IMG/VR virus record: IMGVR_UViG_3300009391_000094
Coordinates: 1 to 5,429 of that record
DNA from: a virus
DNA: 5,429 nt
Reading direction: 5' to 3' (one strand)
The position numbers were made by a program, and so were the translations under genes. The notes beneath the pieces were generated by a model. It made no database searches. It saw nothing but the letters and a program-made list of their open reading frames with translations, and was not told where the DNA came from. This document shows, in pieces, positions 1,219 to 5,429 of this stretch. How positions within the stretch are numbered: position 1 is the first letter of the stretch; each line of letters opens with the position of its first letter.

Positions 1219-1878
1219 ATGATTTGGTTATATAGTGGTACACCTGGTAGTGGTAAGAGTTATCATGCAGTTTATAAAATTTATTATAGATTGAAACAAA
1301 AAAAATTTAATAGAGTAATTGCAAATTTTGAATTAAATTTCCCTGGTGATTTAGATAAAAATTTAACATATTGGGATAATTCCGAAGTTACCATTGATAA
1401 ATTAATTGAATTTGATAAAAAAAATCATGTTTCAATGATAGAGGGCCAAACTTTGGTTGTATTAGATGAAGCACAAATTCTTTTTAATTGCAGAGATTGG
1501 GGAACAAATTCTAAGCTTAGAATGTCTTGGATAAAGTTTTTTAGTCAGCATAGAAAATATCATTTCAATTTTATTTTAATTTGTCAATTTGATAAAATGA
1601 TTGATAAACAAATACGTTCTTTGGTCGAGTATGAAGTTTCACATATGAAAATGAATAATTTTTTTTGGTTTTTACCATTTTCATATTTTCTATGTATAGA
1701 AAGATGGTATGGCCAACGTATGAAAATATCGCATGAGATAATACGTTATACCAAGAAAATATCAAATTTTTATAATTCTTATAAGACATTTGATGATAAA
1801 AAAATTGATGATAAAACAAGCGAATTGGAGCAGAGGAGCGATAGCGAGGAATGCTCTAATTCGCTTGTTTCTATTTAA
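1219..1878 (+). CDS. Zot / pI-type P-loop NTPase, filamentous-phage assembly ATPase (219 aa)
   Basis: AGGAGG at 1206-1211. The N-terminal MIWLYSGTPGSGKSYHAV carries a Walker A motif (GxxGSGKS) at the extreme N-terminus, as in the Zot family. Walker B-like TLVVLDEAQ is present. A hydrophobic stretch FFWFLPFSYFLCI follows the NTPase core. Confidence 0.88.
   Translation: MIWLYSGTPGSGKSYHAVYKIYYRLKQKKFNRVIANFELNFPGDLDKNLTYWDNSEVTIDKLIEFDKKNHVSMIEGQTLVVLDEAQILFNCRDWGTNSKLRMSWIKFFSQHRKYHFNFILICQFDKMIDKQIRSLVEYEVSHMKMNNFFWFLPFSYFLCIERWYGQRMKISHEIIRYTKKISNFYNSYKTFDDKKIDDKTSELEQRSDSEECSNSLVSI
1814..1870 (+). other. Long hairpin (19-bp stem, 19-nt loop) inside the 3' end of the ATPase gene; candidate ssoA-like minus-strand origin, packaging signal or terminator
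   Basis: 1814-1832 pairs with 1852-1870 (18 Watson-Crick pairs plus one G-T at 1827/1857). The loop 1833-1851 is gaggagcgatagcgaggaa and contains TAGCGA (1842-1847) and a 17-nt perfect mirror repeat (1834-1850). This is the most GC-rich patch of the gene. T-rich sequence follows. Confidence 0.6.
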
Positions 1879-2207: not shown

Positions 2208-2414
2208 ATGTATGATAATTATATGCAAATTGAAATTAATGAAACTCTATTAAATTGCAAAACAAGTTATGATAATATTTTAGAAATGAAAGTTTTTAAT
2301 AATCATTTGTTTATAAAAGATATTAATGATTGGTCGACAAATATAGAAATTAATGAAAAAGTAGTAGTTACAGTAAATTTCTATAATTATGATGAAGAAG
2401 ATTATAATTATTAA
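2208..2414 (+). CDS. Hypothetical small protein (68 aa) with an acidic Tyr-rich C-terminus, no recognisable motif
   Basis: AGGAGG at 2195-2200, 7 nt before the ATG. It is in the same operon as 1984-2175. Confidence 0.7.
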   Translation: MYDNYMQIEINETLLNCKTSYDNILEMKVFNNHLFIKDINDWSTNIEINEKVVVTVNFYNYDEEDYNY

Positions 2415-2482
2415 ATTTATCAAATAAAACAATTAATTTAATGGTTTGCGGTAAACCATAAAACCGCTTAGGAGGCTAATAT

Positions 2483-2677
2483 ATGGAAAAATCTAAATTT
2501 ACACTACGTGTTGATAATGAAATACTTAAAGATATGAAAATATTCGCTATACGTCAAAATATGCCCTTAAATGAAATGTTAATACAATGTTATGATATGT
2601 ATAAAAAAAAATATGAGGCTATACAAAATGGTGACATTTTACCAAGTGTTGAAGAATTGGAGGTTGACGACTTTTAA
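2483..2677 (+). CDS. Ribbon-helix-helix (CopG/Arc/MetJ-like) DNA-binding protein (64 aa)
   Basis: AGGAGG at 2470-2475. The N-terminal KFTLRVDNEILKDMKIFAIRQNMPLNEMLIQCY fits a beta-strand / helix / helix RHH layout. It sits upstream of a pMV158-type rep, as copG does. Confidence 0.65.
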   Translation: MEKSKFTLRVDNEILKDMKIFAIRQNMPLNEMLIQCYDMYKKKYEAIQNGDILPSVEELEVDDF

Positions 2678-2810
2678 CCCTAAAAAAAAATAAAAAATCG
2701 TAAGACTATTGGAACCGATAAAACCCGCAGACGTACCGAAGTACTTTTGGAACGCGTAACTTAAAAAAAAGGTAAATAACTCTAACTTAACAAAAAAATT
2801 GAAATTTTGA

Positions 2811-2825
2811 GCGAGCTAGGCTCGC
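2811..2825 (+). other. GC-rich hairpin GCGAGC-tag-GCTCGC in the origin region
   Basis: A perfect 6-bp GC-rich stem with a 3-nt loop, about 40 bp upstream of the nick hairpin. No adjacent T-run on the + strand, so it is not a canonical terminator. Confidence 0.5.
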
Positions 2826-2864
2826 AAATGATGTATTTTTTAAAAAGGTTTTTAAATTTTTTTG

Positions 2865-2890
2865 TGGGGGGGAACTACGACACCCCCCCA
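2865..2890 (+). promoter_or_regulatory. Predicted double-strand origin (dso) nick hairpin of the pMV158 type
   Basis: T-G7 (2865-2872) pairs with C7-A (2883-2890). The 10-nt loop aACTACGACa resembles the remembered pMV158-family nick sequence TACTACG/AC followed by a C-run. The predicted nick is between G2879 and A2880 on the + strand. Confidence 0.7.
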
Positions 2891-2892
2891 TG

Positions 2893-2913
2893 TGTTCAGT
2901 GTTCACTGTTCAT
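2893..2913 (+). repeat. Three tandem 7-bp direct repeats TGTTCAN (candidate Rep-binding iterons)
   Basis: TGTTCAG (2893-2899), TGTTCAC (2900-2906) and TGTTCAT (2907-2913), starting 3 nt after the nick hairpin. Confidence 0.7.
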
Positions 2914-2977
2914 TGAATTGATTATTTTGGGTAATTAAAAACAGTAAATATTAAGAACTGTGAGGTAATTATATTAA

Positions 2978-3595
2978 ATGTCTGATAAAAAAGCAACAAC
3001 TAGAACTAGGAATTTTGCTACAGTAGTTTACTTGGATAGTGCTCCATCAGATTGGCAAGAAATATTACAGTCATTTTGTGTTCAATCTTTTATTTCTCCT
3101 TATCATGATAAAGATTTAAACCCTACTGGAGAGGTTAAAAAGTCTCATTATCATGTAATGATGATGTATGATACTGTTAAAACTATTGAACAGGCAACTG
3201 AAAATTTTAAAAAAATTGGTGGAGTTGGATGTGAAATAATAAATTCTACTAGAGGTTATGCAAGATATTTATGTCATTTGGACAACCCAGAAAAACAACA
3301 ATATTCTCAAGTTGATGTAAAATCTATTTGTGGTGCTGATTATGTTGGTATTATAGGTTTAGTGACAGATAAATACATAATAATGGGAGAAATGCAGGAC
3401 TTTTGTGAAAAATATAATGTAGTATCATTTTATTTACTTTGTAATTATGCTAGGAAAAATCGTTCTGATTGGTATAGGTCACTTTGTGATAATTCATCTT
3501 TTTATATGAAAGAGTATTTAAAATCTAAATTATGGTCACAAGATAGTAAAAATAATCAAATAATTGATTTAGAAACTGGCGAGGTTATAGGGTAG
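2978..3595 (+). CDS. repB: Rolling-circle replication initiator, HUH endonuclease of the pMV158 RepB (Rep_2) family (205 aa)
   Basis: GAGG at 2962-2965. By eye it aligns with RepB of pMV158: RNFATVVYLDSAPSDW vs RYFTFLLYPESIPSDW; ISPYHDKD vs ISPLHDKD (metal ligands); SHYHVMM vs AHYHVLY (HUH, His57/His59, codon 3146-3148 = His57); GYARYLCH vs MYLYLTH (catalytic Tyr candidate Tyr97, codon 3266-3268). Confidence 0.88.
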   Translation: MSDKKATTRTRNFATVVYLDSAPSDWQEILQSFCVQSFISPYHDKDLNPTGEVKKSHYHVMMMYDTVKTIEQATENFKKIGGVGCEIINSTRGYARYLCHLDNPEKQQYSQVDVKSICGADYVGIIGLVTDKYIIMGEMQDFCEKYNVVSFYLLCNYARKNRSDWYRSLCDNSSFYMKEYLKSKLWSQDSKNNQIIDLETGEVIG

Positions 3596-3613
3596 TTAAT
3601 ACTACCCTTTTTT
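3589..3613 (+). terminator. Intrinsic terminator for rep; the hairpin contains the stop codons of both convergent genes
   Basis: AGGGTAGT (3589-3596) pairs with ACTACCCT (3601-3608) around the loop taat, followed by T5 (3609-3613). The rep TAG is at 3593-3595 and the minus-strand gene stop is at 3602-3604. Confidence 0.7.
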
Positions 3614-3796
3614 GATATCATCAATGTCGATTTTTAAAATTTTAAGCATGTTTAAAAAAACATCAAAATTTTCAAGATGTTTTCCATTTATCCATCTACT
3701 AACAGTATTTACATTAATATTTAGCTTTTCTGCAAGCTCTTTAACTGTCAATTCGTTTTCCAACATAGCAATTTTAATTTTAATATGATTAATCAT
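3602..3796 (-). CDS. XRE / Cro-CI-type helix-turn-helix transcriptional regulator (64 aa)
   Basis: LTVKELAEKLNINVNTVSRWINGK is a classic HTH_3 motif. I place the start at ATG 3796-3794, because AAGGAG (3810-3805) lies 8 nt upstream of it. The GTG at 3805 used by the ORF track overlaps that Shine-Dalgarno. Confidence 0.85.
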   Translation of the reverse strand: MINHIKIKIAMLENELTVKELAEKLNINVNTVSRWINGKHLENFDVFLNMLKILKIDIDDIKKG

Positions 3797-3817
3797 ATTA
3801 TTCACTCCTTTAATTTA

Positions 3818-4571: not shown

Positions 4572-4724
4572 ATGGATACAAATGCAGTAGTAACTGCCAT
4601 CACAGGTCAAGCATCAAGTTTAACATCAGACGCAGCTCCAGTAATAGCAGCTGCAATTGGACTTAGTGCATTATTCTTCGGAGCTAAATTGCTTTGGAGA
4701 AAATTTAGAGGCATGGCTTCATAA
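4572..4724 (+). CDS. Major coat protein candidate, pVIII-like (50 aa); not in the ORF track
   Basis: GGAGG at 4560-4564, 7 nt before the ATG. Product is MDTNAVVTAITGQASSLTSDAAPVIAAAIGLSALFFGAKLLWRKFRGMAS. It has a polar and slightly acidic N-terminal part, an Ala/Gly-rich hydrophobic helix, and a basic C-terminus (K, R, K, R) suited to contacting DNA. A strong terminator follows. Confidence 0.75.
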   Translation: MDTNAVVTAITGQASSLTSDAAPVIAAAIGLSALFFGAKLLWRKFRGMAS

Positions 4725-4781: not shown

Positions 4782-5429
4782 ATGTATAATAATAAATTTA
4801 TTTTAATTATCACAATTTTATTAATTATAAATTCAATAATAACACCTGTTTATGCTATTGATAATTCTTTTGCATCAGTTTTTGGAGGTAATGGTAAAGA
4901 GGCTCTAGCATTTATGACTGTAGTTACTGGTTTAGGATTAACTTTTGCTAGTCAATCAGATGCAGTTGCAGTTTATAACGAATTAAAAGAAACAGCTCCT
5001 TTAGTTATTCAAAATATGGTAGCTATAACAAAATCTACTTGGTTAGGTGCTTATAATACTGTTAGTAATGAATTAATTTCTGTAAAAAATTCTGTATATG
5101 ATTATTTATTAAGTAAGTTTGGAACTGTTACAAGTGGTTTAAATATATCACCGTCAACTAATATAAAAGGTAGTATTTTAGATGGTAATACTACTTCTTC
5201 ATTTGAAAATATTAGTACAGGAACATATTCACATTATAATAAATACGGTTCTATAAGAGCAACATTAACTAATTATAATGAAACACAATTAAAAATTACA
5301 TTAAATATTTTTACTAGTAAATCTTTAGATATATATACAGAAACATTTATTGTAAATAAAATAGCATTAGCTTCTTTTAGTTTAAGGATACATGAACAAA
5401 ATTCAGCTTATTGTATTTATGGTGGTCAA
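4782..5429 (+). CDS. N-terminal 216 codons of a pIII-like minor coat / host-adsorption protein; continues at base 128 after circular closure, 486 aa in total
   Basis: GGAGG at 4771-4775, 6 nt before ATG 4782. The frame stays open to the window end, which is why the ORF track omits it. The N-terminus MYNNKFILIITILLIINSIITPVYA/IDNS looks like a Sec signal peptide with an AXA-like cleavage site. It sits directly after the coat gene and its terminator, as gIII does in Ff. Confidence 0.65.
   Translation, partial: MYNNKFILIITILLIINSIITPVYAIDNSFASVFGGNGKEALAFMTVVTGLGLTFASQSDAVAVYNELKETAPLVIQNMVAITKSTWLGAYNTVSNELISVKNSVYDYLLSKFGTVTSGLNISPSTNIKGSILDGNTTSSFENISTGTYSHYNKYGSIRATLTNYNETQLKITLNIFTSKSLDIYTETFIVNKIALASFSLRIHEQNSAYCIYGGQ
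5303..5429. repeat. Terminal overlap copy 2 (circularisation signature)
   Basis: Identical to 1-127. The length of 127 nt is typical of a de Bruijn assembler k-mer overlap. Confidence 0.97.

Follow-up and report, generated by a model that had tools for sequence, protein, structure and literature searches.

A predicted pMV158-type rolling-circle origin in the genome of a small filamentous phage

The genome, its initiator gene and the hairpin upstream of it

The stretch of DNA analysed here (the window, 5,429 nt) begins and ends with an exact terminal redundancy of 127 nt, positions 1–127 being identical to positions 5303–5429, and is thus a circular genome of 5302 nt in circularly permuted form. 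Its GC content is 26%, and the + strand is the coding strand of every gene except one (Table 1). The features by which an inovirus genome is recognised are all present: a Zot/pI-type ATPase, a small coat-like protein and a small circular genome. The closest matches of the Rep protein are in annotated Inoviridae genomes; these relatives were detected at the protein level only, as whole-genome megablast against GenBank phages gave no match. Since the Zot/pI-type ATPase and the coat-like protein occur together with a Rep_OBD/RepB_C protein, the window is read, on its gene content, as a small filamentous phage (inovirus) with an initiator of the pMV158/pE194 plasmid family. An AT-rich array with a period of about 11–12 (TATTTATAAAA) is present at 1872–1915. 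Directly 3′ of it, at about 1920–1948, TTGACA-17 nt-TATAAT forms a near-consensus promoter; the small genes that lead towards the hairpin and rep come after this promoter.

Table 1. Genes and sequence features of the window discussed in the text
Feature	Position	Strand	Remarks
Zot/pI-type morphogenesis ATPase	1219–1878		Pfam Zot, 1.2e-15
Arc-like RHH protein	2483–2677	+	upstream of the origin; weak match to phrog_3180
A/T-rich tract TATTTTTTAAAAAGGTTTTTAAATTTTTTT	2834–2863		directly 5′ of the hairpin; read from sequence
Hairpin left arm, T-G7 (T2865; G7 at 2866–2872)	2865–2872	+	equivalent to pMV158 IR-I(L)
Loop AACTACGACA, carrying the nick sequence	2873–2882	+	predicted Rep cleavage G2879/A2880
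Hairpin right arm, C7-A (C7 at 2883–2889; A2890)	2883–2890	+	equivalent to pMV158 IR-I(R)
Three tandem 7-bp repeats, predicted Rep binding site	2892–2913	+	corresponds in position to the pMV158 proximal direct repeats
rep, RepB/pMV158-family HUH initiator, 205 aa	2978–3595	+	Pfam Rep_OBD (PF01719), 2e-40
HTH_3 repressor	3602–3805	−	divergent from the structural operon
50-aa coat-like protein	4572–4724		match to phrog_1859

The Rep protein also carries the C-terminal oligomerisation domain RepB_C (residues 129–183; Pfam, 2.7e-12), and it is matched by the RepB structure in the PDB (3DKX, 7.4e-11). Residues H39, D42, H55, H57 and Y99 of RepB align with H43, D46, H57, H59 and Y97 of Rep, i.e., the Mn2+ ligands and the nucleophile, and all five occupy invariant columns in eight relatives. 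Motif III of Rep reads YLCH; the signature YLxH was noted for the pE194/pMV158-like cluster by Kazlauskas et al. 2019 (PMC6668415). The only families that Pfam recognises in Rep are the plasmid families Rep_OBD and RepB_C, with no phage (gpII-type) initiator family among them, and no family of PHROG v4 was matched at E ≤ 0.001. A strong Rep_OBD match without any PHROG family suggests that RepB-type initiators are absent from the phage genomes of PHROG. No other initiator gene was detected in the window, either among its open reading frames or by Pfam.

Upstream of rep, the + strand reads TTGT-G7-AACTACG/ACA-C7-AT-GTGTTCA-GTGTTCA-CTGTTCA, in which G2879 and A2880 are the G and A of ACTACG/AC. 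The sequence-only reading had described, at 2865–2913, an 8-bp T-G7/C7-A stem, a loop with ACTACG/AC and the tandem series TGTTCAG-TGTTCAC-TGTTCAT, and all of these are recovered from the sequence itself, by inverted-repeat search, by folding and by TRF. It had placed the repeats 3 nt later, which holds when the distance is counted from the C run; they begin 2 nt after the last base of the stem, A2890. The inverted-repeat search returned I16, with arms of 8 nt that are 100% complementary and a spacer of 10 nt. Folding of the region as single-stranded DNA gives the same hairpin (centroid −9.4 kcal/mol, MFE −11.1 kcal/mol) with z = −2.07, 6 of 200 dinucleotide shuffles folding as well; this single-sequence significance is moderate because dinucleotide shuffles retain the G and C runs. 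TRF reports a repeat of period 7 at 2892–2912, with 3.0 copies and the consensus GTGTTCA. The repeats can be written in two registers, GTGTTCA GTGTTCA CTGTTCA from 2892 or TGTTCAG TGTTCAC TGTTCAT at 2893–2913, and they are 20/21 identical, next to a perfect stem.

The runs of seven G and seven C had been singled out as conspicuous in so AT-rich a genome, and they are: at 26% GC the hairpin arms are the sole runs of G or C of at least 5 in the window, where the expected numbers of runs of seven are 0.009 and 0.001. The exact motif ACTACGAC occurs once in the window, with 0.057 occurrences expected, and there is a single case of a hexamer present three times at period 7, an arrangement seen in 2 of 2000 shuffles. 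A chance origin of the G and C runs, of ACTACGAC and of the triple repeat is excluded.

About 64–65 nt separate the last repeat from the rep start codon. Two short open reading frames that overlie the region (2807–2938 on the + strand and 2787–2906 on the − strand) are probably spurious, because both cross the conserved hairpin and repeats. The A/T-rich tract at 2834–2863 may ease melting of the hairpin or extrusion of a cruciform. The segment 2678–2977 has 32% GC, compared with 26% for the genome, and a small hairpin, GCGAGC-TAG-GCTCGC, is present at 2812–2826, inside the non-coding stretch 2678–2864. This stretch of 187 nt is not significantly structured (z = −1.2) and has no match in Rfam. 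None of the intergenic regions of the window is conserved in relatives, and one relative, L006, has no counterpart of the stretch 2678–2864. Folding, Rfam and intergenic conservation in relatives revealed neither a minus-strand origin nor a packaging signal in the window.

Related loci in phages, plasmids and genomes of gut Clostridia

A tblastn search with Rep recovered 412 plasmid records that contain a homologue, and 38 phage records; the latter, from bajarodino viruses, Dulem viruses and Inovirus sp., all belong to Inoviridae. Scans of IMG/VR and of GTDB genomes added 11 and 80 loci, respectively. Several of the GTDB loci are integrated; most come from MAGs of Lachnospiraceae, Oscillospiraceae and Acutalibacteraceae from the gut. 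A perfect hairpin of 5–18 bp that presents CTACGA on the rep strand was found in 89 of 102 sources with a Rep homologue (several of the remaining sources are contigs cut near rep). A covariance model added two origins: the stem of the first is imperfect, and the second is divided across a circular junction. The sources that bear the origin include bajarodino, Dulem and Inovirus sp. phages, plasmids of L. reuteri and E. faecium, and MAGs of gut Clostridia. The covariance model finds one match in the window and, likewise, a single match per locus elsewhere, except for one small circular contig in which the origin is read at both ends. The origin precedes rep in some genomes and follows it in others, which implies that rep and origin travel as a module.

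One locus, L095 (906–964, minus strand), is the sole case in which the origin module lies opposite to the rep strand; it is on a MAG contig of 1744 bp, and its orientation may be due to misassembly or to a real inversion. On two Acetatifactor MAG contigs, CAJUAB010000015.1 (L039/L040) and CAJUQT010000011.1 (L041/L042), relatives are present as two tandem prophage copies. The tandem copies diverge right past a shared motif, TTTAACG(A/C)ATAGTT(G), which is absent from the window. Rep-mediated integration of these relatives at the nick site was considered and rejected, the junctions being about 1.7 kb (L039/L040) and about 460 nt (L041) from the hairpin.

The motif ACTACGAC does not vary among the 18 aligned origins. 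The stem does: arms other than G runs are also seen, e.g., CCCTATGGGG/CCCCATAGGG, TTCCTTGAGGG/CCCTCAAGGAA and CATTTGGTTGGT/ACCAACCAAATG. Among 84 distinct origins, 90.9% of the cells are paired, and double-sided changes, in 150 cells altogether, affect 9 of 9 pairs. The covariation score is 0.503, compared with 0.119 in shuffles (0 of 500 reach 0.503) and with 0.05–0.13 when the partners are slid. Pairs were counted in the covariance-model alignment (A3), together with an independent Python scan, instead of in the MAFFT alignment (A2), which is unsuited to direct pair counting because loop lengths differ. Such varied stems, with covariation in all nine pairs, indicate that selection keeps the structure of the stem and not the G run itself. 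It is this comparison, and not the fold of a single sequence, that provides what we take as the decisive evidence for the hairpin of the predicted origin.

The best repeat after the hairpin has a period of 7 in 88 of 89 loci; there are two copies in 53 loci and three copies in 36, starting 0–7 nt past the stem. The sequence of the repeat varies by lineage (TGTTCA, TGATCA, TGGTCA, TGGCCA, TGTCCA, GTGCCA), and its core co-varies with the Rep residue aligned with V67 of the window (codon 3176–3178). The equivalent residue in RepB is P65, which belongs to the loop preceding the α2 recognition helix; in the OBD-DDR crystal structure it is this helix that enters the major groove (PMC9943647). The core TG(T/A)TCA accompanies the Rep residues V-K-T/S in 52 of 55 loci, TGGTCA accompanies K-K-S/T (17/17), TGGCCA accompanies H-K (3/3), TGTCCA accompanies N-K-S (2/2), and GTGCCA accompanies P-x-T in 4 of 4 loci, pMV158 included. 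This co-variation argues that Rep reads the 7-bp repeats; the correlation is partly confounded by shared ancestry, and as evidence it is good but not conclusive. Six K-type Reps resemble a V-type Rep more closely than any K-type Rep of less than 90% identity, and in a rough, poorly resolved NJ tree the K-type lineages are scattered among the V-type, both of which argue for repeated coupled switches instead of one split between clades. The pairing of Lys with G and of Val with T is chemically sensible, and a possible code would be Val with T/A, Lys with G, His with GC and Asn with TC.

In pMV158, RepB binds weakly to a site made up of the right arm of the hairpin and two proximal direct repeats of 7 bp (GTGCCPuA), whereas three 11-bp distal repeats, 84 bp downstream, form the high-affinity site (PMC1851628); this distal bind locus is required in vivo. 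Proximal direct repeats are reported directly 3′ of IR-I in all members of the family (PMC1851628), and distal repeats in most but not all of them. A scan that recovered the pMV158 DDR at +84, its positive control, gave no triple repeat with a period of 8–13 in the first 230 nt or so downstream, either in the window or at 88 other loci, plasmids among them, and TRF revealed no distal bind locus in the window. A pair of GGTAATTA copies (2930 and 2964) was rejected as such a locus: the copies are not in tandem, and the second coincides in part with the rep ribosome-binding site, itself conserved in L006. Without a distal bind locus, loading of Rep must depend on the proximal repeats alone, which in pMV158 are weak binders of RepB. 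It can be proposed, tentatively and at somewhat less than even odds, that in a large subfamily comprising inoviruses of gut Clostridia and small plasmids the proximal repeats are the only Rep-loading site, that the residue at the V67 position specifies the third base of the repeat, and that the two have repeatedly switched together. If so, the code would keep the replication specificities of phages and plasmids apart where they reside together, and would answer how initiators of the RepB family recognise the nic-proximal repeats, a question from the structural work on pMV158. The co-variation of residue and repeat is also a cheap mutational handle on origin specificity, in a family that is used for Gram-positive vectors.

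Proposed initiation of replication and its alternatives

The RepB nick in pMV158, 5′-TACTACG/AC-3′, has been mapped by experiment and must be unpaired, in the loop of IR-I (PMC1851628); the RepB footprints on the pMV158 dso, which include the right arm of IR-I, have also been mapped by experiment (PMC1851628; PMC9943647). These published data agree with what the sequence-only reading had stated of the nick sequence, its place in the loop and the direct repeats next to it; the C run that it named beside the pMV158 hairpin is borne out by the pMV158 record, which carries G7/C7 arms. What defines the family is, for the most part, found in the window: a Rep_2/Rep_OBD initiator with the HUH ligands and the Tyr, the nick sequence, its position in the loop, and the proximal repeats. 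The distal direct repeats (the bind locus), another mark of the family, are missing. With a probability of about 0.9, positions 2865–2913 are a rolling-circle origin of the pMV158 type, and the phage would have acquired a replication module of the pMV158/pE194 type.

Initiation can be pictured as follows. On the supercoiled replicative form, Rep would bind the three 7-bp repeats (2892–2913) and the right arm of the inverted repeat, and extrusion of the G7/C7 cruciform would present ACTACGAC as single-stranded DNA in the loop. Tyr97, with Mn2+ held by H43, H57 and H59, would then cut the + strand; from the alignment with pMV158, the cleaved bond is predicted to be G2879/A2880. Rep would remain on the 5′ phosphate, while the 3′-OH would prime leading-strand synthesis and the old + strand would be displaced. 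After one round, Rep would cut the regenerated site and rejoin the ends, thereby releasing a circular + strand that could either be converted to double-stranded DNA via a minus-strand origin or be coated and packaged. Because rolling-circle synthesis makes circles of the nicked strand only, the + strand should be the one that is packaged. In annotated relatives, rep and zot share the strand of the nick motif. The window has a GC skew of +0.15 and an AT skew of +0.02, values that a coding-strand bias would produce equally.

A perfect, GC-rich, intergenic hairpin upstream of a gene might also terminate or attenuate transcription on the way from the upstream genes into rep, the repeats being incidental. 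However, the stem has no T run after it on either strand, a terminator scan of 2400–3700 does not list it, and the loop does not vary and matches a mapped nick site exactly; the missing T tail, the negative scan and the invariant loop rule this explanation out, and, with the module also lying downstream of rep in relatives, its probability is negligible. It is very improbable, too, that the hairpin functions chiefly in the single-stranded + strand, as a packaging signal or sso and not as a nick site. Such a hairpin would form in packaged single-stranded DNA, the window has yielded no other packaging signal or sso, and there is a parallel in Ff, whose packaging hairpin adjoins the origin; yet hairpin, loop and repeats are also present in plasmids that are not phages, including pMV158, where they are the dso. 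The hairpin may have a second role in packaging, but such a role cannot account for the conservation of the nick motif.

The position of the repeats, 65–85 nt upstream of the rep start codon, would suit an operator for control of rep transcription by Rep itself or by the RHH or HTH repressors, and autoregulation via origin repeats, known in other replicons, offers a precedent. That this, and not loading at the origin, is their main function is improbable: in L001, L003 and L005, whose origin is downstream of rep, the repeats come 0–3 nt past the hairpin as well, and a sigma-70-like promoter on the + strand was not found at 2890–2977. A role as operator is compatible with origin binding and is secondary to it, because the repeats trail the hairpin even when the origin is downstream of rep. 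Finally, the missing distal bind locus could be taken to mean that the phage replicates from another site and that the module is no more than what remains, inactive, of a captured plasmid. This has next to no probability, given that Rep is intact with every catalytic residue present, that neither the perfect hairpin nor the near-identical repeats (20/21) are decayed, that no second initiator gene was detected, and that the compact module has been retained in about 90 loci.

The original reading of 2865–2913 as a rolling-circle origin thus gains support from a RepB-family Rep with its catalytic residues and from the same module at about 90 loci with a Rep homologue. It provides a base-precise predicted origin and nick site for uncultured filamentous phages of gut Clostridia, and shows that a complete pMV158-type module (Rep, hairpin and repeats) moves between plasmids and inoviruses as a unit. 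It also defines the strand expected in the virion, which helps strand-specific analysis of viromes. The parts of most note are the putative code between residue and repeat and the wide spread of the module in inoviruses of gut Clostridia.

Comparison with known replication origins

The pMV158 record, itself recovered by tblastn, reads ATAT-G7-CTACTACG/A-C7-TATA-GTGCCGA-GTGCCAA, with G7-CTACTACGA-C7 as its hairpin, and has the DDR, three copies of TCGGCGACTTT, beyond the proximal repeats. The A-T tract of its dso is 3′ of the PDR (PMC1851628). The window resembles pMV158 in having an initiator with identical Pfam families and catalytic residues, G7/C7 arms, the nick core ACTACG/AC in the loop, and tandem 7-bp repeats 2–4 nt past the right arm, on the rep strand. 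Alignment with dso regions of the pMV158 family, which had been suggested as a check, revealed the same hairpin, nick core and 7-bp repeats. The two differ in several respects. The 9-mer of the window, AACTACGAC, is 8/9 identical to that of pMV158, the first base being A in the window and T in pMV158; the loop of the window is 10 nt, with all of ACTACGAC unpaired; and there are three proximal repeats of the type GTGTTCA, compared with two of the type GTGCCPuA. The window has neither the distal bind locus of three 11-bp repeats nor a copG gene between origin and rep. The RHH protein encoded upstream of the origin was considered as a homologue of CopG and ruled out, as it has no similarity to pMV158 CopG. 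Moreover, the replicon of the window is a phage genome, whereas pMV158 is a plasmid.

The compact layout of the window has an identical counterpart in small plasmids of the pMV158/pE194 family, e.g., E. faecium pNUITMV12_9 and an L. reuteri RE225 plasmid, in which a hairpin with ACTACGAC in its loop is followed by three 7-bp repeats (TGGTCAT or AGGTCAA) and, as in the window, there are no distal repeats. Their Reps are 37–39% identical to that of the window. The repeat core GGTCA is paired with Lys in these plasmids, whereas the window has Val at that position, and, unlike the window, they have no phage morphogenesis genes.

In the Ff phages (M13/f1/fd), gpII nicks the + strand in the intergenic region, and rolling-circle replication displaces, circularises and packages the + strand, which is the coding strand. 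The likeness to Ff is in the functional logic of nick, displacement and packaging of the + strand, as predicted for the window. The nick sequence and binding repeats of Ff are not those of the window, which is not a member of this group, and gpII is presumably a different kind of protein from the Rep of the window.

CRESS-DNA viruses and geminiviruses also present the nick site in a stem-loop with adjoining iterons and have an HUH Rep with a YLxH motif III, and pE194/pMV158-like Reps have been linked to the CRESS-DNA assemblage by Kazlauskas et al. 2019 (PMC6668415). They differ in that their nonanucleotide is unlike the nick sequence of the window, their Reps have an SF3 helicase domain in place of the RepB oligomerisation domain, and their hosts are eukaryotes. 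In the same survey of HUH proteins, the Reps of inoviruses form five clusters that belong to a single supercluster; the pE194/pMV158-like cluster belongs to a different one and was treated as a plasmid family only (PMC6668415). A literature search found no paper describing a RepB-type origin in inoviruses or bajarodino phages. Thus, the type of origin is a known one and is that expected for the RepB family of initiators, whereas its inovirus carrier and its form with proximal repeats only are less familiar.
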